Of a stretch of 64,000 bases of DNA, positions 1,777 to 14,882 are shown in pieces. Within the stretch, counting starts at the first letter, position 1. Each line of letters begins with the position of its first letter. The position numbers and the translations under genes were made by a program. The notes below the pieces were generated by a model. The model did no database searches. It was given only the letters and a program-made list of their open reading frames with translations, and had not been told where the DNA came from. The stretch is taken from positions 243,841-307,840 of IMG/VR virus record IMGVR_UViG_3300041809_000571; one strand, 5' to 3'. Source of the DNA: a virus.

Positions 1777-4700
1777 TTACGCCTTCACGATGAACAAGTC
1801 AAGGTTCAGCCTTGTGACAGTTCCCGCAGAGTCTAGGTTGAACTCCAAGACATCTCCCGCCAAAAGAGAGGTGGTCCATGTCCCGATGTTAGTGCTGGTA
1901 TTAAACTGTTGAGGTCCTGTTAGATTTGGCGGGGCAGAAGCTACGATGCTGACAGTAGTAGGGAGCGATGCATAGGCACACTTCTTGACGGTAATCTGAG
2001 CAGTGCCGGAGGCATTCGCCAGCATAGTCCACCCAGTTATCGTGGCATTGTAAGGAACCTGTATGTACCCATACGAACCCGTTGAGGGGACTGACCCCTT
2101 CCCGTCGATAGTGAGCGTGATGATTTGATTCTGTGGAGAATATATCAGGACCACATTCTGCCAAGTCAACCCCGCAATGGTGGAGCCTGCAAAGCTGGAG
2201 ACATTGGCAATATCTTGAGCAATCCGCTGGGAAGGACCAGCCTCAAAAGCCATGCCGAGAATCGTTATCACTGGGGTTGTATTTGCGCAGTAAACTCCCG
2301 CAATCACGTTATCTGAACCGTCGCTATTGTTGAAGACCGTATTCCCGACGAGCTTTGTGTTCGAAGCGGCGGCAGCGATGTACCAACCATATTCCGTGGG
2401 GCTGTCAGCGTAGCAATTAGTCCAAGTACTGAATTGAGAGTTGTCGTAGAAACAAACAGCCATGGGGTTGGCGCTGGCCGGTGCTCCACCATAGGCATGG
2501 ATGTCGGTAAACCAGCAAGCACCTGTGTCGGTTCTGACACCCGTGGCGCATCCTACAATGACAGCAGTGTCAACACGATTGTCGGTAATAGCCCCCGTAC
2601 AGTATACTCCCGCACCAGCAGCGGTAGTCGCTGCATAAACATGGACATTTTCCAAATAGCATTCGAATCCACCCGACCCGTGAACCGGGAAGTCCGTAAT
2701 GTCCCCAATCAGGAAGCCATTGGTCGTTGGGTACTTAACGTAGGTGTCTTTGATGGTGAAGTGCCTGCACGAGCGTACATATACCCCATTTGCGGCCAAG
2801 GCATTGCAATTAATCACGCCCCCGACCATGTTTGTACCCGGAAGGTTGACTGCTACCGTAGGCCCGACGATTAGGACTGCGTCCATAGCAGAGGAAGCAA
2901 TGAGTTGTGCTCCGGGGTCCATGACTAGGTTAACATTGTAAGGTATGATGATATGACTGGCCAGCAGGAATTGACCGGCTGGGACATAGACAGTACCACC
3001 TGAACTGAATGCCGCTGCCGCTGTCATAGCTGCATTGAATGCGACAACGTTATCAGTGCTTCCGTTCCCCACAGCCCCGTAATTCAAGACGTTAAATGGG
3101 TAGTCTACGAGGGGGCCATTTGGCCCCGTCCACCCGGTGTAGCCTGTATATCCTGTGGGTCCGGTATAACCGGTAACTTGAGGTCCCGTATATCCTGTGT
3201 ATCCACTGATTCCCATAGGTCCCGTATAACCCGTGGGTCCGGTTCCTCCCGGTCCTGTCGGACTGGTATAACCCGTGGGTCCGGTTCCTCCCGGTCCTGT
3301 CGGACCGGTATATCCGATGTATCCTGTATAACCGGTATACCCGGAGTAACCGGTTGGTCCTGAGTAACCCGTGGCTCCGGTATAACCTGTGTAGGCTCCG
3401 GGTCCTGTATACCCGGTATAGCCTGTAAATGCTCCGGGGCCAGTGGGACCGAGGGGTCCAGTATATCCTGAATAACCAGTATAACCAGAGGTACCTGTAT
3501 ATCCAGTATAACCTGTAAAGTTACCGGGACCGGTGGGACCCGTTGGACCGGTGTAACCAGTAACACTCGGGCCTGTGTATCCGGTGTACCCACTCTGACC
3601 CGTATAACCGCTCGGACCTGTGAAACCTGTGCTGCCGGGTCCTGTGTACCCCGTAAAACCAGTGAAGTTGCCTACACCCGTGGGACCCGTGTAACCCGTG
3701 GCTCCATCCGCTCCTTGATGCCCGATAGGTCCGGTGTAACCGGTGTCGCCTTGGAATCCTCGATAACCGCTATAACCCGTGTATCCGGTGAAACCCGTAA
3801 AGTTACCGGGACCAGTTGGACCGGTTGAACCCGTGTACCCCGTAACGGCGGGTCCGGTGTAGCCAGTCGGCCCACTCGGGCCGGTGGGGCCGGAATACCC
3901 CGTATACCCTGTAATGGTGGGTCCAGTGTATCCGGTCGGTCCAATGGGTCCAGTCGGCCCTGAATACCCCGTAAAAGCTCCGGGGCCGGTAAATCCCGTG
4001 TATCCCGTAAAACCCGTGAAATTGCCCGGACCGGTGGGTCCGGTCGTACCTTGCGGTCCCGTGTACCCCGTCCAGCCTGTAAAGTTGCCGGGGCCGGTAT
4101 AGCCCGTAGCTCCACTATAGCCGGTGAATCCTGTGAAATTACCCGGACCGGTTGGACCGGTTGTACCAGTCGGTCCAGTATACCCCGTTATCGAGGGTCC
4201 AGTGTATCCTGTGTAACCGGTTCTTCCGGTGTAACCGGTGTAACCCGAGTAACCGGTAAAATTGCCCGGACCGGTTGCTCCCGTATATCCGCTGTATCCC
4301 GTAGCTCCCGTGAAATTCCCCGGACCGGTAGGTCCTGTAGCCCCCGAATATCCCGTAAATCCTGTGAAATTTCCGGGTCCAGTCGGACCGGTGTAGCCGC
4401 TCGTTCCCGTGTAACCCGTATAACCTGTAAATGCTCCGGGACCAGTGTATCCCGTATATCCAGTGATACTGGGGCCGGTGTAACCGGTGACCCCCGCCGT
4501 CCCGGCTCTGCCGGTGTACCCGGTAGCTCCCGTGGGTCCCTGAAAACCTTGATACCCGCTGTAACCTGTGGCTCCCGTGGCTCCGGTATAACCCGTAAAA
4601 TTACCGGGACCCGTGGGGCCGGTTGCCCCGGTCGGTCCCAAATTTCCGCTATAGCCGGTATAGCCCGTGAAATTACCGGGACCCGTCACCCCCGTGTACC

Positions 4701-5556
4701 CTGTAAACCCTGTGAAATTCCCCGGCCCGGTGGGGCCGGTGAACCCACTGGCTCCCGTAAAACCCGTATACCCGGTTGCTTGTGGTCCCGTATAGCCCGT
4801 GAAGCCTGTGTACCCCGTGCTCTCAGGTCCAGTATAGCCGGTATACCCAGTTGGCCCAATCGGTCCTGTATACCCTGAATATCCGGTAAAATTGCCCGGA
4901 CCGGTGGGTCCCTGCTGACCGGTGTACCCGGTCATTCCGGTGTAACCCGTGTCCCCGCTATAACCTGTAAACCCTGTGTATCCAGTGAAGTTCCCCGGTC
5001 CCGTGGGTCCAATTGAACCAACAGGCCCGGTGTACCCAGTAAAACCCGTGAAGTTTCCGGGGCCAGTGGGGCCGCTGTCCCCCGTATAGCCCGTGAAACC
5101 GGTAAAATTGCCCGGTCCAGTAGGTCCGGTCGTTCCTGTATATCCTGTTATGCCGGGTCCAGTAGGTCCGGTCGGCCCAGAATCACCCGTGTAGCCGGTC
5201 GGACCCGAATATCCGGTAAAATTGCCCGGACCGGTGTAACCCGTGAAACCGCTGGGGCCGCTGTAGCCGGTATACCCTGTAAAGTTTCCCGGTCCTGTGG
5301 CACCGAGCGGGCCGGTGGGTCCGGTCGTGCCGGTCACACTTTGGGCAATAAGACCCCACCACGTGGAGCCGACGAAGGGGGTGTTACCCCGGTTGTTGTT
5401 CTGGAGAGAAATCCACGAGGAACCGTTGTAAGTGAGGGCGTTGCCAAACTGATAGGTGATGGTATTATTCCACGGCTTCACATACGTGACGAGGATGCCG
5501 TCGATAGTGAAAACGGAGTTGGGGCTGACCGGGTCTATGACTCTGATAGCTGGCAT
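1777..5556 (-). CDS. Collagen-like repeat tail fiber with C-terminal pectate-lyase-like right-handed beta-helix (putative depolymerase fiber)
   Basis: 1259 aa. About 780 aa of G-X-T triplets ([13 protein letters not shown] units), then a C-terminal [42 protein letters not shown] stretch typical of the Pectate_lyase_3 / tailspike beta-helix. The nucleotide sequence is highly repetitive (ccggtaaaattgcccggaccggt units). Confidence 0.8.
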
Positions 5557-7454: not shown

Positions 7455-7531
7455 TGGAGCGGGCGATGGGATTTGAACCCACGACATCCAGCTTGGGAAG
7501 CTGGCGTTCTACCGGACTGAACTACACCCGC
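7455..7531 (-). tRNA. tRNA-Gly(CCC), solitary, CCA encoded
   Basis: Hand-folded cloverleaf: acceptor GCGGGUG/CGCCCGC, D-stem GUUC/GAAC, anticodon arm CCAGC-UUCCCAA-GCUGG, T-arm GUGGG-UUCAAAU-CCCAU, U73, CCA. Confidence 0.7.
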
Positions 7532-8955: not shown

Positions 8956-9696
8956 ATTGGTTCTCCTTTTGAGTTGGTGCGTGACTCACGTTCTAACGCC
9001 ACGGCGTAGTGAGCGCAAACAGAGGGAGTTGCCGCCCGCTCCAGTGGCTCGGTAAAAGAGTTACTAGCTCGGCTCCCATTGCTGAGTAAATCCGTGGTCA
9101 AGCAGCGCTGATTCGCATCACGCACCAAGCTATAATACTGAAAATTTTGTGGACCTATAAGCGGAGTTCTGTGCCTCTTGCGAGGTGACAACCATTCGTC
9201 TAGGGCGGCCATTACTGGACGCCTCAAGCTCTCAACCCGAGGGTTATAGCGAACCGAGCAGGTTCATCCCCTCCTATTCGAGATTGCTCCCCGTGAAGAT
9301 TGCCCGTTTCACCCGGACTTAACCGGCTCGTCTCTGTTGCTCTAATTGTCGCAGTATTGCTACTGCGCCGGGGCGTTACCCCGCACGGTGCTCTGTGTAG
9401 CTCCGACTTTCCTCTCCCCCTTGCGGGGCAGTAGTTGTCCAGTCCACAAACTTTTTCCAAACTTAGGGTTATTGGGAGCGAAGATTCCCTTGGAGCCATC
9501 CGGGTCAAGGGCCTTCAAGGTCAGATAATAACTCATGCTCCCAATGCTCACGCCGTCACCTTACACCCACAAGGTTCATAATCCTGTTGCCAGCCGGGCG
9601 GTATACTCTTCATCCACCCCTTGACCTTGACCCTTACGGTACATGGCTTTTTGTGCTTACGGTGTTTGCATTTAGAACATTTGGCGGAGGCCATAC

Positions 9697-11607: not shown

Positions 11608-11961
11608 TGGTGGAGGCGACGGGGAGTTGAACCCCGTGTCCGAAAAGTGTCACAACAAGAAGACTACACGCTTATCCTGCTTCGTACTGCTCTTTGCCAT
11701 GACTCTGCTGAAACAGGCATATCAGAACCACGGTGCAAGCCTTCATCTCGCCGGATATCGGCTACATCCCCGGTCGCAGCCTCTCTATCGGCGCTTGGCC
11801 TCTACCCGACAGGCTAAAGCAGAGCAAGCGTGCCTAATCTAGCGATTAAGCAAATGCATATTGCGCTGTGGCAATTGCGTTGTTAACCCTTGTTACGGGC
11901 AGGGTAACCTCCCGGCGTGCCTTCCTGTAATGAGCGCTCCCGTCGAAACCAGAACGCCCCC
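11608..11961 (-). ncRNA. ssrA: tmRNA (ssrA-like transfer-messenger RNA), about 354 nt, CCA encoded
   Basis: Minus-strand 5' end GGGGGCGUUCUGGUUUCGACGGGA matches the tmRNA consensus GGGGnUGAUUCUGGAUUCGACGGG. The 3' end GGACACGGGGUUCAACUCCCCGUCGCCUCCACCA is a tRNA-Ala-like T-arm/acceptor with G3:U70, A73 and CCA. A candidate internal tag frame reads AAC AAC GCA AUU GCC ACA GCG CAA UAU GCA UUU GCU UAA (...NNAIATAQYAFA*). Confidence 0.8.
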
Positions 11962-12006: not shown

Positions 12007-12100
12007 TTGGTCCCGGTGTTGGGAGTCAAACCCAATCCATGCCCTAATCTGGGGCTTATGCAGTTTATAAGACTGCTCGTTCGGTCGCAAACTTCACCGG
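12007..12100 (-). tRNA. tRNA-like, type II (long variable arm), isotype undetermined (anticodon loop CUUAUAA, UAU?)
   Basis: Acceptor CCCGGUG/CACCGGG, T-arm UUGGG-UUUGACU-CCCAA, A73-CCA, variable arm GCCC-CAGAUUA-GGGC, anticodon stem GCAGU/ACUGC. The D-arm folds poorly by hand. Confidence 0.4.
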
Positions 12101-12104
12101 GGAA

Positions 12105-12181
12105 TTGGCACCGTGGACGGGACTTGAACCCGCTAATGACCGGCTTGAAGGGCCGGTGACTCGGCGCTTTGTCTTCCACGG
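12105..12181 (-). tRNA. tRNA-Glu(UUC)-like (anticodon loop CCUUCAA, C at position 33)
   Basis: Acceptor ACCGUGG/CCACGGU, T-arm GCGGG-UUCAAGU-CCCGU, G73-CCA, anticodon stem CCGGC/GCCGG. Confidence 0.5.
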
Positions 12182-12185
12182 TATC

Positions 12186-12260
12186 TTGGTAGCCCTGCCG
12201 GGACTCTAACCCGGTTCCGCTGGTTGAAAGCCAGCCATCCTAAACCATAGACGACAAGGC
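12186..12260 (-). tRNA. tRNA-Glu(UUC)
   Basis: Acceptor GGCCUUG/CAGGGCU (two G-U pairs), anticodon arm GCUGG-CUUUCAA-CCAGC, T-arm CCGGG-UUAGAGU-CCCGG, A73-CCA. The D-arm resembles E. coli tRNA-Glu. Confidence 0.6.
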
Positions 12261-12412
12261 CAGAAATTTGAGGCTGCGAAATATCCACGTTTGGGAGTAC
12301 AAGGACCGGTAGCAGCCTCGGTTTATCGGTACCCACTACGTGGCTCAGTTTAGACCGCCGTCCTGATACGACCACGATTGAAACCTGCGGTCAAGGTGTA
12401 TCGTGGCCTCGC

Positions 12413-12487
12413 TTGGAGCACCCGGAGAGAATCGAACTCCCGCATAAAGGGTTTGCAGCCCTCTCCCTTCCCACTTGGGTACGAGTG
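12413..12487 (-). tRNA. tRNA-Cys(GCA)
   Basis: Acceptor GCACUCG/CGGGUGC, anticodon arm GAGGG-CUGCAAA-CCCUU, T-arm GGGAG-UUCGAUU-CUCUC, U73 (Cys identity element), CCA. Confidence 0.7.
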
Positions 12488-12570
12488 CAAATTTGGCTCG
12501 CCTACCACTCTCTCAGTGGCTTTGAACCGTGCGGGCAGCTTTCACCGCCGCAGGCTATCTGGCTCGCAAT

Positions 12571-12645
12571 GTGGAGCACCTGAACGGAATCGAACCGTTG
12601 CATAGCTGTTTTGCAGACAGCCGCCTTTCCACTTGGCGACAGGTG
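12571..12645 (-). tRNA. tRNA-Cys(GCA), second divergent copy
   Basis: Acceptor GCACCUG/CAGGUGC, anticodon arm GCUGU-CUGCAAA-ACAGC, T-arm AACGG-UUCGAUU-CCGUU, U73-CCA. Confidence 0.7.
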
Positions 12646-12647
12646 CG

Positions 12648-12881
12648 TTATTCTTCTTCCTCAGCCGACTCCTTACTTAGGTCCACCGGCTGGCGAATCT
12701 TGGCAATCTTTCTTTCGGTGGATACGGAGAGTCTCACGTACTCCACTCGTGCCCAATGGACGGTGTGAACCGCCATCCACCCGACCACCACCCATTTAGA
12801 AAAGATGGTGAAAATCCTGTCGGGGTTGATGCTTATAAACCAAAGCACCACGCACATAAACCAATGCCACAAAGAAATCAT
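12648..12881 (-). CDS. small hydrophobic protein (2 predicted TM helices) embedded in the tRNA array
   Basis: 77-aa ORF MISLWHWFMCVVLWFISI...FTIFSKWVVVGWMAVHTV with a GGGAGG RBS 4 nt upstream. It sits exactly in the gap between tRNA-Cys and tRNA-Glu. Confidence 0.35.
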   Translation of the reverse strand: MISLWHWFMCVVLWFISINPDRIFTIFSKWVVVGWMAVHTVHWARVEYVRLSVSTERKIAKIRQPVDLSKESAEEEE

Positions 12882-12931
12882 CTAGCCTCCCGTCATGCAG
12901 TGTGTTCCCCCAAAGCATGGCGGGGGTGAAA

Positions 12932-13008
12932 CTGGTAGCCCCGGTGGGATTCAAACCCACGGTCTCCGCCTTGAGAGGGCGGCGTCCTTGGTCGCTAGAC
13001 GACGAGGC
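12932..13008 (-). tRNA. tRNA-Glu(CUC)
   Basis: Acceptor GGCCUCG/CGGGGCU, anticodon arm CCGCC-CUCUCAA-GGCGG, T-arm GUGGG-UUUGAAU-CCCAC, A73-CCA. Confidence 0.65.
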
Positions 13009-13079
13009 CATGTCTTAGCAGGGCACGACTGGCTACGATGAGTTTATGTCAGCGGGAAGCCTGATTCTGTGCCCTAAGT

Positions 13080-13155
13080 TTGGTGGACGGGAAGGGAGTT
13101 GAACCCTCAGTCTCTCGGGTGCGAGCCGAGCGCTTTCCCAGTTAAGCTACCTGCC
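13080..13155 (-). tRNA. tRNA-Ala(CGC)
   Basis: Acceptor GGGCAGG/CCCGUCC with G3:U70 (Ala identity) and one A5-C68 mismatch, D-stem GCUU/AAGC, anticodon arm CUCGG-CUCGCAC-CCGAG, T-arm GAGGG-UUCAACU-CCCUU, A73-CCA. Confidence 0.65.
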
Positions 13156-13160
13156 CAAAT

Positions 13161-13290
13161 GCAATCGTGGAGGGAATCGAACCCTCTCTCCTGTTGCAGC
13201 CTGCAAGCCGCTACAGTTCTTCCCCCCGTTACTTCCAAAGCCAGACAGCCTTCGGTCTTGCAGGACCTATTGCCATCTCGGGGGCTGAAA
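13161..13290 (-). ncRNA. Unresolved structured RNA with a perfect tRNA T-arm (GAGGG-UUCGAUU-CCCUC at 13169..13185) but no identifiable 7-bp acceptor partner or encoded CCA
   Basis: The T-arm is seen directly. Searches for a 5' acceptor strand complementary to CACGAUU failed, so this may be a type-II, intron-containing or degenerate tRNA. Confidence 0.3.
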
Positions 13291-13291
13291 C

Positions 13292-13367
13292 TTGGTGCGC
13301 CGAGCAGGACTCGAACCTGCGACCTCTTCCGTGTCAGGGAAGCGCTCTAACCACTGAGCTACCAGCG
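13292..13367 (-). tRNA. tRNA-Val(GAC)
   Basis: Acceptor GCGCUGG/UCGGCGC, D-arm GCUC-AGUGGUUA-GAGC, anticodon arm CUUCC-CUGACAC-GGAAG, T-arm GCAGG-UUCGAGU-CCUGC, A73-CCA. Confidence 0.7.
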
Positions 13368-13468
13368 CAAACGCATGGATTTCCCTACGGTCGCCTAGAC
13401 CCCGTCTGTTTATGTACTGCTTTGCGGGGCACTGCTACTGGTTAGCTCGCTACTAGGGCCATGCGTAA

Positions 13469-13546
13469 AATGGCGGTCCATACGGGATTTGAACCCGTGG
13501 TCTTCTCCGTGACAGGGAGACGAGGACTCCAGACTCCTCCAATAGA
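13469..13546 (-). tRNA. tRNA-Asp(GUC)
   Basis: Acceptor GGUCUAU/AUGGACC, D-stem GAGG/CCUC, anticodon arm UCUCC-CUGUCAC-GGAGA, T-arm ACGGG-UUCAAAU-CCCGU, G73 (Asp-type), CCA. Confidence 0.7.
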
Positions 13547-13552
13547 CCGAAA

Positions 13553-13631
13553 CTTGGCGGTGAGTACGGGATTTGAACCCGTGTTTCTACCGTGACAGGG
13601 TAGTGTCTTAGGCCGGGCTAGACCAACCCAC
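13553..13631 (-). tRNA. tRNA-Asp(GUC), second divergent copy in tandem
   Basis: Acceptor GGUGGGU/ACUCACC, anticodon arm CUACC-CUGUCAC-GGUAG, T-arm ACGGG-UUCAAAU-CCCGU, G73-CCA. Confidence 0.65.
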
Positions 13632-13723
13632 CGTAATCGGACCCTATTAACCCGCTCATGGGCGGAGGCTTTCGCCGGGGCGGCACATAGCACAAATACT
13701 ATCCCGTTCGTATGCCGCTAAAC

Positions 13724-13798
13724 TTGGTGGACCTAAAGGGAATCGGACCCTTGACCTCTCGGCTGCCGACCGAGCGCTCTCCCGCTGAGCTACAGGCC
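13724..13798 (-). tRNA. tRNA-Ala(GGC) (C at position 33)
   Basis: Acceptor GGGCCUG/UAGGUCC with G3:U70, D-arm GCUC-AGCGGGA-GAGC, anticodon arm CUCGG-UCGGCAG-CCGAG, T-arm AAGGG-UCCGAUU-CCCUU, A73-CCA. Confidence 0.55.
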
Positions 13799-13960
13799 CA
13801 CAAAAATTCGGGACAACCGGCTGGTTAGGCTAGTCATCCGCAGGTTCTACTGCTCGGGGTCCCTTTTCAGGGGAACCACCACAGTCCCCCTTACTGAGGG
13901 ACCCTGCTGGTAGAACCTCGCCACTCGTCAGCTTCGACAGCCCTTAGAGTGACTACAATC

Positions 13961-14034
13961 TTGGAGCGGGTGACGGGACTCGAACCCGTCTCTACAGCTT
14001 GGAAGGCTGCGGCACAACCTCTATACCACACCCG
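13961..14034 (-). tRNA. tRNA-Gly(UCC)
   Basis: Perfect acceptor GCGGGUG/CACCCGC, anticodon arm GCAGC-CUUCCAA-GCUGU, T-arm ACGGG-UUCGAGU-CCCGU, U73-CCA. Confidence 0.7.
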
Positions 14035-14125
14035 CAAATCTTGTGAGGACATTGACGCAGCCCCCTGTTTACGTTGACCGGCGTGTCAGAGCCGGTGTCC
14101 TGCCGCTGGACCTCAGCGGACTTAC

Positions 14126-14199
14126 TTGGTGGAGCTACGGGGATTTGAACCCCGATTCCTTGCGTGCAAGGCAAGTGTCCTGCCGTTAGACGATAGTCC
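14126..14199 (-). tRNA. tRNA-Ala(UGC)
   Basis: Acceptor GGGACUA/UAGCUCC with G3:U70 and one A4-C69 mismatch, anticodon arm CUUGC-CUUGCAC-GCAAG, T-arm CGGGG-UUCAAAU-CCCCG, A73-CCA. Confidence 0.55.
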
Positions 14200-14204
14200 C
14201 AAAC

Positions 14205-14279
14205 TTGGAGCGGGCGGTGGGGTTCGGACCCACGACCTCTTCCTTGGCAAGGAAGCATTCTACCACTGAACTACGCCCG
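14205..14279 (-). tRNA. tRNA-Gly(GCC)
   Basis: Perfect acceptor GCGGGCG/CGCCCGC, D-arm GUUC-AGUGGUA-GAAU, anticodon arm CUUCC-UUGCCAA-GGAAG, T-arm GUGGG-UCCGAAC-CCCAC, U73-CCA. The overall sequence closely resembles E. coli tRNA-Gly(GCC). Confidence 0.75.
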
Positions 14280-14351
14280 CAAACCGCCAAGTAGGTTCTT
14301 AACCAATATGCATCGGGTCTTGGACCGTTCCTGCATTACCCTTGGCGAAAT

Positions 14352-14430
14352 ATGGTGCGCCGTGAAGGAATTGGACCTTCGACCTCTCGCTTGTGGAGCG
14401 AGCGCTCTAAACCGGGCTGAGCTAACAGCG
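14352..14430 (-). tRNA. tRNA-Val(CAC) (C at position 33; long D-loop)
   Basis: Acceptor GCGCUGU/ACGGCGC, D-arm GCUC-AGCCCGGUUUA-GAGC, anticodon arm CUCGC-UCCACAA-GCGAG, T-arm GAAGG-UCCAAUU-CCUUC, A73-CCA. Confidence 0.55.
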
Positions 14431-14438
14431 CATCGAAC

Positions 14439-14513
14439 TTGGTACCCACTGAGAGAATCGAACTCCCGACATCCTCCTTGTAAGAGAGGCGGTCTTCCAC
14501 TGGCCTAAGCGGG
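14439..14513 (-). tRNA. tRNA-Val(UAC)
   Basis: Acceptor GCCCGCU/AGUGGGU (two G-U pairs), anticodon arm CCUCU-CUUACAA-GGAGG, T-arm GGGAG-UUCGAUU-CUCUC, A73-CCA. Confidence 0.6.
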
Positions 14514-14526
14514 CAAATCTTGTACT

Positions 14527-14558
14527 AAAAACAAAAAAGGCGGCTTTTCAGCCGCCTT
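14527..14558 (-). terminator. Intrinsic (rho-independent) terminator on the minus strand: GGCGGCU-GAAA-AGCCGCC followed by UUUUUUGUUUUU
   Basis: GC-rich 7-bp stem with a 4-nt loop and an 11-nt U-tract, read on the reverse complement. It lies 13 nt upstream of the first tRNA of the array. Confidence 0.7.
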
Positions 14559-14686
14559 CGGGGGTCCTTGCTTGGATTTTCTATCCAAGCCCTCCCGAAG
14601 GCGAGGTATCGCCTCCCTCACACACTGCGGCGACCGCTTCTATCAAGTCAACCGGGTTTGTGATGGCCGTTTTCATGTTCATCTCG

Positions 14687-14706
14687 CTTCTATATAATAC
14701 TGTCGG
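14687..14706 (-). promoter_or_regulatory. Promoter-like motif CAGTATTATATAG (minus strand), one of two recurring motifs between the NADAR-region genes and the tRNA array
   Basis: Member of the recurring AGTATTATA motif family listed in the findings. Confidence 0.4.
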
Positions 14707-14882
14707 TAGTTCAAAAACTTCAAAAATTTGCGATAGACTTGACGGCGGCTCACTTGCGGGCGTGCAACCAAAGCTGCCTTGGTCTCCCGGTTGGCTCCGG
14801 TCTCACATTCTTATCTGCGAGTCTCCCCTACCAAGTTCCCTTGGCTTCATCCGGGGTATCTTCGGCCCCGACTACGGAGCCT

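Follow-up and report, generated by a model that had tools for sequence, protein, structure and literature searches.

What occupies the tRNA-sized gaps between the genes of a large viral tRNA array? The 64,000-nucleotide (nt) stretch analyzed here, positions 243,841 to 307,840 of IMG/VR record IMGVR_UViG_3300041809_000571 (hereafter, the window), raises this question at 12187–14514 of its minus strand, where 14 canonical tRNA genes are recognized by ARAGORN and Rfam (51–71 bits) and a number of them are set apart by stretches of roughly tRNA length. An earlier note on this DNA had taken these spacers for "minihelix or degenerate tRNA elements" and had listed processing signals, tRNA pseudogenes, non-canonical tRNAs and small regulatory RNAs as their possible identities. 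With moderate confidence, we favor the last of these, namely that the spacers are independent small non-coding RNA genes, carried as cassettes in the polycistronic tRNA operon of a jumbo-type phage, released together with the tRNAs by tRNA processing and functioning in trans. Individual spacers are referred to below by S numbers.

tRNA character of the spacers

All helices and hairpins quoted in the earlier note (CGCCAAG/CUUGGCG, AGGGCAC/GUGCCCU, a T-arm, AGGUUCUAC/GUAGAACCU and CCGGC-UCUGACAC-GCCGG) are present, and they lie on the minus strand, which carries all RNA genes near the array. End-to-end helices of at least 7 base pairs (bp) occur in three of nine spacers, the observed length being reached by 0.4–1.2% of dinucleotide shuffles in each case. 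Folding z-scores relative to shuffles were −4.8 for 13800–13961, about −2.6 for 13010–13080, 12489–12571 and the 3′ part of 12262–12413, and −0.1 to −1.8 for the rest. The outcome that the earlier note had named as fatal to its proposal, folding no better than shuffled controls together with no conservation in related phages, did not arise for most spacers; six have homologues, four of these in divergent relatives. Moreover, three spacers that had been set aside as unfoldable turned out to be structured: 13369–13470 is closed by an 8-bp end-to-end helix, 12262–12413 contains a conserved pseudoknot and 12489–12571 folds with a z of −2.5.

The absence of a cloverleaf was borne out. ARAGORN in its default and intron modes gave no tRNA in any spacer, and the Rfam tRNA model, which scored the 14 real tRNAs at 51–71 bits, matched no spacer at E ≤ 10. 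The relaxed and mitochondrial modes of ARAGORN returned implausible extra calls only, on the wrong strand or overlapping real genes; one of them, an "mtRNA-Val" at ~13436–13498 in mitochondrial mode, overlaps a tRNA-Asp gene. Behind their terminal helices, S2, S8 and S10 carry GUUU, UU and GCUAAGACAU, respectively, instead of a discriminator base and CCA, and no module carries the 3′ RCCA after its closing helix that would mark a minihelix substrate of RNase P. With no tRNA score, no NCCA after the terminal helices and, as described below, non-tRNA folds maintained in S5 and S13, the designation as minihelices or degenerate tRNAs is not upheld by the comparative data.

Folds and homologues of the modules

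Relatives of the locus were recovered using the adjacent NADAR protein, a small open reading frame (ORF) inside the array and a 38-nt exact word. They comprise seven further lineages, namely the L082 group, L169 (partial), L171, the L187 group, L001, L089 and L090 (equal to L091 and L109), along with the short contigs L195–L197. The order of the tRNAs is identical in the window and these seven relatives (eight lineages), and a transfer-messenger RNA (tmRNA) gene ends the array wherever the contig reaches it. Neighboring tRNAs are separated in all lineages either by a U-rich linker of 0–11 nt or by a module of ~40–990 nt, with a 19-nt gap in L090 as the exception. Wider searches did not enlarge the group: in IMG/VR, a pattern for the tmRNA tag yielded, outside the group, nothing beyond chance matches; a 184-amino-acid (aa) neighboring protein retrieved only the close relatives already known; and the whole array, used as query against a phage GenBank collection, found no relative, only short matches to single tRNAs.

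S5 (13800–13961, z = −4.8) contains a core of 116 nt (13804–13919, minus strand) that is present in all eight lineages, always in the spacer 3′ of a tRNA-Gly. The core folds as a long-range helix, GGUUCUAC/GUAGAACC, around a long irregular hairpin with the loop GUGGU, followed by a 3′ hairpin with the loop UAACC, and a contact between these two loops is proposed; the helix AGGUUCUAC/GUAGAACCU to which the earlier note had drawn attention lies within it. In the alignment of eight sequences, the 35 pairs of this fold are 96% paired and 14 of them show compensatory changes, which in the first-noted helix include U-A/A-U/C-G and A-U/G-C. The covariation score was reached by none of 500 shuffles, and slid controls paired at 29–62%. 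A covariance model scored 99–130 bits on the tRNA strand versus at most 30 bits on the opposite strand, and it recognized the L187 sequence, which was outside its training set, with 98.7 bits. The same model found no match over 2.2 Mb of other NADAR-phage loci and confirmed none of 52 matches that a loosened S5 pattern produced in GTDB genomes. Identity of the core between lineages ranges from 68 to 99%, and the S5 module is 99% identical in L082 despite tRNAs that are only ~70% identical. The core, fixed behind a tRNA-Gly in every lineage, diverges at the rate of the tRNAs with its pairs kept, which looks like vertical inheritance under purifying selection.

Upstream of the core lies S5a (13920–13961, minus strand), a 5′ hairpin module, GUCACUC/GAGUGGC, that is variable: it is found in L082, L171 and L187, is missing from L001, L089 and L090, and is split by another module in L169. 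Two assignments were considered and rejected in this region. S5a contains CUGAYGAG, as a hammerhead would, but the motif lies partly in a stem, there is no GAAA or stem II/III arrangement and Rfam gave no match; likewise, a resemblance of the core to signal recognition particle RNA (ACCAG...GAGCAG) found no Rfam support.

S13 (12262–12413) is built from two domains. Its 5′ domain (12356–12413, minus strand) is a hairpin, GGCCACGAU/AUCGUGGUC, whose inner loop, GACCGC, can pair with a downstream GCGGUC. Compensatory changes, G-C to C-G and A-U to G-C, occur in both helices, while the loop-to-tail pairing is invariant and hence beyond covariation testing. In the 3′ domain (12262–12355, minus strand; z = −2.7 for the 3′ part), the invariant strands CCACGUAGUGGG and CCCAAACGUGGA (helix A) enclose hairpin C, the loop of which, GAGGCUGC, pairs with the 3′ tail, GCAGCCUC (helix B), giving rise to a pseudoknot. 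One pair of helix C occurs as C-G, G-C and U-A, and two pairs of helix B are compensated. Over the whole module, 37 pairs are 97% paired, seven are compensated and 0 of 500 shuffles reach the score. Homologues are present in L090 (90% identity), L195 (93%), L171 (86%) and L001 (76%), and the 3′ domain alone in L082; an S13 pattern run over IMG/VR and the GTDB genomes returned nothing new.

Three further modules (S4, S6 and S9) have weaker comparative support, and a fourth, S8, has a copy in a close relative only. S4 (91 nt; 14036–14126, minus strand) consists of three consecutive hairpins, CCGCUG/CAGCGG, CCGGC-UCUGACAC-GCCGG with its 8-nt loop, and GGGGGC/GYYCCC. It is 93% identical in L169 and 95.6% identical in L187, with the first 61 nt invariant and variation confined to G-C to G-U changes in the third hairpin; a closing helix, AGGACA/UGUCCU, is lost in both relatives. 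S4 follows tRNA-Ala(UGC) in the window but tRNA-Val(CAC) in L187, and the tRNAs of these two arrays are only ~70% identical, compared to the 95.6% of S4. S4 behaves as a mobile cassette. S6 (92 nt; 13633–13724, minus strand), which the earlier note had not listed, lies upstream of the tRNA-Asp pair and forms a long hairpin and a small three-way domain. In L089 and L090, the spacer in this position shares 78% identity with S6, and the differences include a tetraloop swap, GAAA for UACG, along with AUAG/CUAU to ACAG/CUGU (U-A to C-G in a stem). The folding z of S6 is −0.1.

S8 (102 nt; 13369–13470, minus strand) encloses internal hairpins in an 8-bp end helix, ACGCAUGG/CCAUGCGU (P ~0.004 in dinucleotide shuffles; folding z = −1.6). 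Its sole homologue is a partial copy in the close relative L196 (91% over 88 nt), where substitutions are located in loops or, in the 3′ strand of the end helix, allow wobble pairing; the 5′ strand of this helix is lost at the contig end. S9 (136 nt; 13157–13292, minus strand) comprises a structured 5′ domain with the helices CCCCCG/CGGGGG and CCUGCAAG/CUUGCAGG and a possible pseudoknot, a canonical T-arm, GAGGG-UUCGAUU-CCCUC, and a short tail. As the earlier note had stated, this T-arm has no acceptor partner; a CCA is missing as well. The T-arm is the only tRNA-like part of S9, and it is maintained by compensation: in a full-length homologue in L001 (135 nt, ~69% identity), the T-stem GAGGG/CCCUC has become GGGGG/CCCCC. 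In L090, the S9 family is represented by a 37-nt remnant only. A chance-level match to YrlA (E = 3.8) over the S9 T-arm was the only Rfam match in any spacer at E ≤ 10.

Two ideas linking several modules were discarded. A split or permuted tRNA assembled from the S9 tail, CCACGAUUG, and a complementary CAAUCGUGG in S13 shows no covariation in the L001 homologues, and the S13 hairpin uses this segment itself. A C(A/G)UAAAC motif shared by S4, S8 and S10, 40–48 nt from their 3′ ends, was considered as a promoter or seed, but it is lost in the L196 copy of S8.

Module turnover, linkers and proposed release

Between lineages, the conserved modules show the same degree of similarity as the tRNAs (68–99% identity, 76–90% for S13, versus tRNA means of 70–91%). 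Modules are also present, absent, replaced or moved from one lineage to another. In L196, tRNA-Val(GAC) and tRNA-Ala(CGC) are 97–99% identical to those of the window, yet S9 and S10 are replaced by unrelated modules of 89 and 127 nt, respectively, and S12 is absent. The array is mosaic: identity between L082 and the window is 95% for the flanking genes, 98% for the tmRNA and 99% for the 13800–13961 module, but only ~70% for the tRNAs. HNH, GIY-YIG and Endonuclease_7 genes, all of homing-endonuclease type, lie between the tRNAs of relatives' arrays (L082, 1687–2199 on the minus strand and 2880–3530 and 4212–4811 on the plus strand; L187, 1–650 and 2393–2782; L195, 782–1225); the window's own array contains none. 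At the DNA level, the locus behaves as a cassette array: modules come and go, replace one another and change slots, probably through recombination at shared linkers and with the help of the homing endonuclease genes of relatives.

Three modules are orphans, for which no homologue was found. S2 (72 nt; 14281–14352, minus strand), between tRNA-Val(CAC) and tRNA-Gly(GCC), has two internal hairpins inside a 7-bp end-to-end helix, CGCCAAG/CUUGGCG, that spans 63 nt (P ~0.01 in shuffles; folding z = −1.8). It is absent from the closest relative, L169, where the tRNAs abut, and from L089 and L171; the slot measures 72 nt in the window, 83 nt in L001, 76 nt in L090, 7 nt in L089 and 0 nt in L169 and L171. 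S10 (71 nt; 13010–13080, minus strand) is a single long irregular hairpin closed by the 7-bp helix AGGGCAC/GUGCCCU (P ~0.012; folding z = −2.7). S12 (83 nt; 12489–12571, minus strand; z = −2.5) forms two hairpins between two tRNA-Cys genes, has the 8-nt direct repeat GCGAGCCA on either side and shows a tRNA-like 3′ end (...GCGAG-CCA) that lacks a 5′ partner strand. These two tRNA-Cys genes are 83 nt apart in the window compared to 4–7 nt in L195, L196, L001, L089, L090, L171 and L082; S12 is a lineage-specific insertion. The three orphans may be young insertions or decayed elements, and a pseudogene reading is most plausible for S12, given its GCGAG-CCA end and direct repeat.

That the spacers in general are tRNA genes in decay, either pseudogenes or fragments produced by duplication, deletion and endonuclease-driven rearrangement, with no function of their own, is the alternative that survives best, unlikely as we judge it to be. 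It would account for the orphans S2, S10 and S12 as lineage-specific debris, for the GCGAG-CCA end of S12 and the direct repeats at its flanks, for the perfect T-arm that S9 keeps and for the mere S9 remnant in L090, and it has parallels in acceptor-plus-CCA elements without a cloverleaf in relatives (L082, ~3785–3893) and in sub-threshold tRNA-like genes at 12012–12183. However, no spacer retains residual tRNA similarity at E ≤ 10, the S9 T-stem is compensated in L001, and S4, S5 and S13 are conserved as much as working tRNAs or more. S5 and S13 maintain non-tRNA folds through compensatory substitutions, which is not the pattern of a tRNA pseudogene and argues against neutral decay.

The junctions of the modules resemble those of the tRNAs. 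In all 14 array tRNAs, an AG(U/A)UU-type linker comes after the encoded CCA, and the modules are bracketed on both sides by U-rich linkers of the tRNA type (CCA-AG(U/A)UU ... (A/U)UUU-tRNA), each module joining the upstream CCA via such an AG(U/A)UU-type linker and ending 0–10 nt before the next tRNA. RNWUU, the reported cleavage consensus of RNase E, is found at 52 of 117 junctions just after a tRNA 3′ end and at 44 of 64 long-spacer 3′ ends, while 5–9% would be expected from module interiors. In addition, a U at position −1 suits bacterial RNase P.

Based on these results, we suggest that the tRNA maturation machinery would also free the modules. The operon would continue beyond the array into the tmRNA gene and a phage-encoded RNase P RNA gene, and each module would fold autonomously, by way of a terminal helix or of stable hairpins and pseudoknots. 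An RNase E-type cut between RN and WUU in the linker after the upstream CCA would generate the 5′ end of a module, and its 3′ end would arise where RNase P cleaves the tRNA that follows at its 5′ end. Structured ends might then guard the released modules against exonucleases, and the RNAs would most likely act in trans during infection, in binding or decoy roles tied to the translation and RNA-processing theme of the surrounding genes.

The same linkers could be taken to mean that the modules act in cis as punctuation of the precursor, aiding tRNA folding, presenting RNase P or RNase E sites or protecting the transcript, and are then discarded. U-rich, RNase E-like linkers do bracket modules as they bracket tRNAs, the terminal helices recall known non-tRNA substrates of RNase P (the 4.5S RNA precursor and the C4 RNA of phages P1 and P7), and an RNase P RNA is encoded nearby. 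Because the same tRNA pairs are only 0–11 nt apart in relatives, however, no module is needed to process neighboring tRNAs, and the idea of required processing signals loses its ground. Invariant loops and pseudoknots would be superfluous for generic punctuation, no terminal helix carries a 3′ NCCA, and the 96% identity of S4 after a change of slot would be left unexplained. We therefore regard a cis role as less likely again than decay.

Ranking behind it, and improbable in our view, is the notion of selfish DNA or RNA cassettes, or their scars, that are spread by homing endonucleases and whose structure serves their own maintenance. Polymorphic presence and absence, slot changes, near-identical copies in divergent arrays and the direct repeat at the ends of S12 are what it would predict, as are the HNH, GIY-YIG and Endonuclease_7 genes in relatives' arrays, but the modules encode no protein and the window's array holds no endonuclease gene. 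Moreover, the S5 core, fixed after tRNA-Gly in eight of eight lineages and diverging at the tRNA rate with its pairs kept, does not conform to such behavior.

Self-cleaving ribozymes (theta or hepatitis delta virus (HDV)-like, hammerhead, twister, pistol, hatchet and similar) that mature the 3′ ends of upstream tRNAs are very improbable. Theta ribozymes directly adjoin phage tRNAs (PMC10879173), S13 and S9 offer pseudoknots and S5a offers CUGAYGAG; yet the strand order of S13 (A5′-C5′-B5′-C3′-A3′-B3′) differs from the nested double pseudoknot of HDV, the S5a motif lacks a hammerhead context as described above, tRNAs with short linkers need no ribozyme and no Rfam ribozyme family matched at E ≤ 10, a search in which no dedicated theta descriptor was run. 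Hardly credible, finally, are non-canonical functional tRNAs, either armless or, as the earlier note had wondered for S4, frameshift suppressors with an 8-nt anticodon loop: although CCGGC-UCUGACAC-GCCGG resembles the tRNA-Val(GAC) anticodon arm plus one base and is invariant in three lineages, and although S2 and S10 match tRNAs in size and have 7-bp closing helices, an acceptor stem with a discriminator and CCA behind it is found in no spacer while every true tRNA here encodes CCA, a T-loop occurs in S9 only, neither ARAGORN in bacterial mode nor Rfam gave a match (mitochondrial mode adding the one implausible call), and S4 is not such a tRNA because it is a row of three hairpins with no acceptor stem, T-arm or CCA and with a closing helix that is not kept, which also rules it out as a D-armless tRNA.

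Several observations weigh against trans-acting RNA genes, the reading we prefer. Co-transcription of modules and tRNAs, excision by RNase E and RNase P, stability and function in trans are steps that we infer, and no target, partner or conserved accessible seed was identified for the modules. The covariation in S5 and S13 is based on 5–8 related sequences, with a shuffle control that does not correct for phylogeny. The S5 core alone occurs in every lineage; all other modules are lacking in one relative or more, so they are not essential. S2, S10 and S12 have no homologue and S8 has one close partial copy, their support consisting of folding z values of −1.6 to −2.7 plus terminal helices; these modules could be young, non-functional insertions. 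Furthermore, the sole sigma-70-like promoter found (14694–14723, minus strand) lies ~130 nt upstream of a terminator-like hairpin. This region could be a leader or attenuator, or the array could be expressed via read-through or from a phage-specific promoter. The hairpin in question (14536–14559, minus strand) is strong, carries a U-tract and ends ~20 nt upstream of the first tRNA; the leader upstream of the array is 85–89% conserved in L082.

A bolder extension of the trans-acting reading, possible but doubtful, is that the tRNA operon would work as a platform like an integron, on which a changing set of trans-acting structured RNAs is expressed and processed, with cassettes exchanged via linkers or homing endonucleases and with the S5 core as a new functional RNA class in the phage's translation and RNA-processing toolkit, beside tmRNA and RNase P RNA. 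Decoys or inhibitors of host tRNA-targeting defenses, RNases or translation factors would be candidate roles under such a scheme.

The RNA island and known systems

The window seems to belong to a large phage genome, judging from predicted proteins that include a collagen-repeat/pectate-lyase fiber protein, a ribonucleotide reductase, the NADAR protein and many very long ORFs. The 14 array tRNAs (three Val, two Gly, three Ala, two Asp, two Glu and two Cys) decode GNN codons only, covering Val, Ala, Asp, Glu and Gly with nearly all anticodon variants, plus the two tRNA-Cys; a lone tRNA-Gly(CCC), detected by ARAGORN and Rfam, lies at 7455–7531 (minus strand). The tmRNA gene (11608–11961, minus strand; ARAGORN and Rfam) encodes a tag ending in QYAFA. 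Downstream of the array, a type-A bacterial RNase P RNA gene (9142–9450, minus strand; Rfam RF00010, 191 bits) is also found in the relative L001, at 79% identity. Its product is presumed to be the ribozyme that cuts each tRNA 5′ end and hence the 3′ end of each module. A tRNA array, a tmRNA and its own RNase P RNA together form an "RNA island" in this phage-type genome.

One spacer of the array is of a different kind. S11 (286 nt; 12647–12932, minus strand), absent from the earlier note, is protein-coding and not an RNA element: an ORF at 12648–12881 (minus strand) encodes a hydrophobic protein of 77 aa, with a Shine-Dalgarno sequence, GGGAGG, 5 nt before the ATG, and has homologues inside related arrays (P0008, 95%; P0009, 70%; L082 at 2259–2450).

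Between the tmRNA and the array lie two tRNA-like genes. The first (12012–12101, minus strand; 90–94 nt) has UAU as its anticodon, a type II shape with a long variable arm, A73 and an encoded CCA. It is sub-threshold by default in the window, where the Rfam tRNA-Sec model gives 30 bits, and is called as tRNA-Ile(UAU) by ARAGORN in L001, L089 and L171. An AUA decoder with a body of the Leu/Ser/Tyr type is unusual. The second, also sub-threshold (12109–12183, minus strand), has a 7-bp acceptor stem, CCA, a T-arm and a 6-bp anticodon stem; its anticodon loop is CCUUCAA, which in L082 is CUUUCAA and thereby contains the UUC (Glu) anticodon. It adjoins the canonical tRNA-Glu(UUC) and is kept in L001, L082 and L089. 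Two elements of relatives come closer to what the earlier note had in mind, namely a 108-nt RNA in L082 (~3785–3893, minus strand) with an acceptor stem, GCGGGUG/CGCCCGC, plus U-CCA and no cloverleaf, and an 87-nt element in L169 (11102–11188, plus strand) with a canonical T-arm, CUUGG-UUCGAGU-CCAAG, and an ACA tail.

Gaps of similar size are seen elsewhere. In unrelated NADAR-carrying phage contigs (loci L002–L168), 102 gaps between adjacent tRNAs on the same strand measure at most 15 nt, eight measure 30–60 nt and 73 measure 60–170 nt. From these counts, tRNA-sized spacers look like a general feature of large phage arrays, and the bimodal-gap phenomenon is probably widespread and under-annotated. 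For annotation, this would mean that what passes for a tRNA-sized "spacer" in a phage array may in many cases be an RNA gene that lacks annotation.

Several known systems share features with the modules. Theta ribozymes, minimal HDV-like RNAs, are small structured RNAs that directly flank phage tRNAs and are tied to tRNA maturation (PMC10879173). The modules differ from them in matching no ribozyme model, in pseudoknot topology, in the encoded CCA of the tRNAs and in the occurrence of short-linker tRNA pairs with no module. Non-tRNA substrates of RNase P, such as the precursors of 4.5S RNA and tmRNA and the C4 antisense RNA of phages P1 and P7, are of the hairpin type, have their ends set by RNase P and show a helix with a 3′ CCA-like tail; here, the predicted cut would fall at the neighboring tRNA and not at the module. 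In the tRNA-microRNA units of murid herpesvirus 68 and the tRNA-small nucleolar RNA dicistrons of plants, the tRNA is a handle by which an unrelated small RNA is freed from a shared transcript. These units are eukaryotic, depend on RNase Z together with RNase P and show no cassette turnover. tRNA pseudogenes and fragments of bacterial and phage arrays likewise occur in dense arrays with sub-threshold members (compare 12012–12183, and ~3785–3893 in L082), but in the spacers described here the S9 T-arm is the only resemblance to a tRNA, and the folds kept by covariation are different ones.

The closest known analogues are rnaC and rnaD of phage T4. These RNAs (species 1 and species 2, respectively) are expressed, and their function is still unknown (PMC9697503). 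In the T4 cluster, rnaD (119 nt) and rnaC (139 nt) lie 1–6 nt from tRNA-Arg and from each other, beside the homing endonuclease gene segB; like the modules, they are non-tRNA RNAs on the tRNA strand within a few nt of tRNAs. rnaC is strongly structured (z = −4.6, compared to −4.8 for S5) and, as in S9, has a canonical T-arm and a short tail at its 3′ end. As stable folds of ~70–160 nt of the T4 type, S5 and S13 stand out by their covariation, the case being weaker for S2, S4, S6, S8 and S9. The likeness is architectural, no sequence homology to rnaC or rnaD having been detected in the whole-array search of the phage collection, which involved no direct alignment or model search. Rfam holds no model for either RNA, and the lack of Rfam matches in the spacers therefore says little.

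Covariation supports at least two new RNA families here, of which one is pseudoknotted, and three more have weaker comparative support. The phage group provides a natural comparative series for the stable RNAs of tRNA clusters, of which only a handful of examples were available before, and makes the old T4 question testable. Small stable RNAs in a phage tRNA cluster are a known kind of element, and it is the families that are new. While T4 has two such RNAs at the end of its cluster, here about nine modules of at least eight unrelated shapes, two of them pseudoknotted, are interleaved through the array, turn over between slots among close relatives and share an island with tmRNA and RNase P RNA; in number, diversity, turnover and setting, they exceed the T4 picture.

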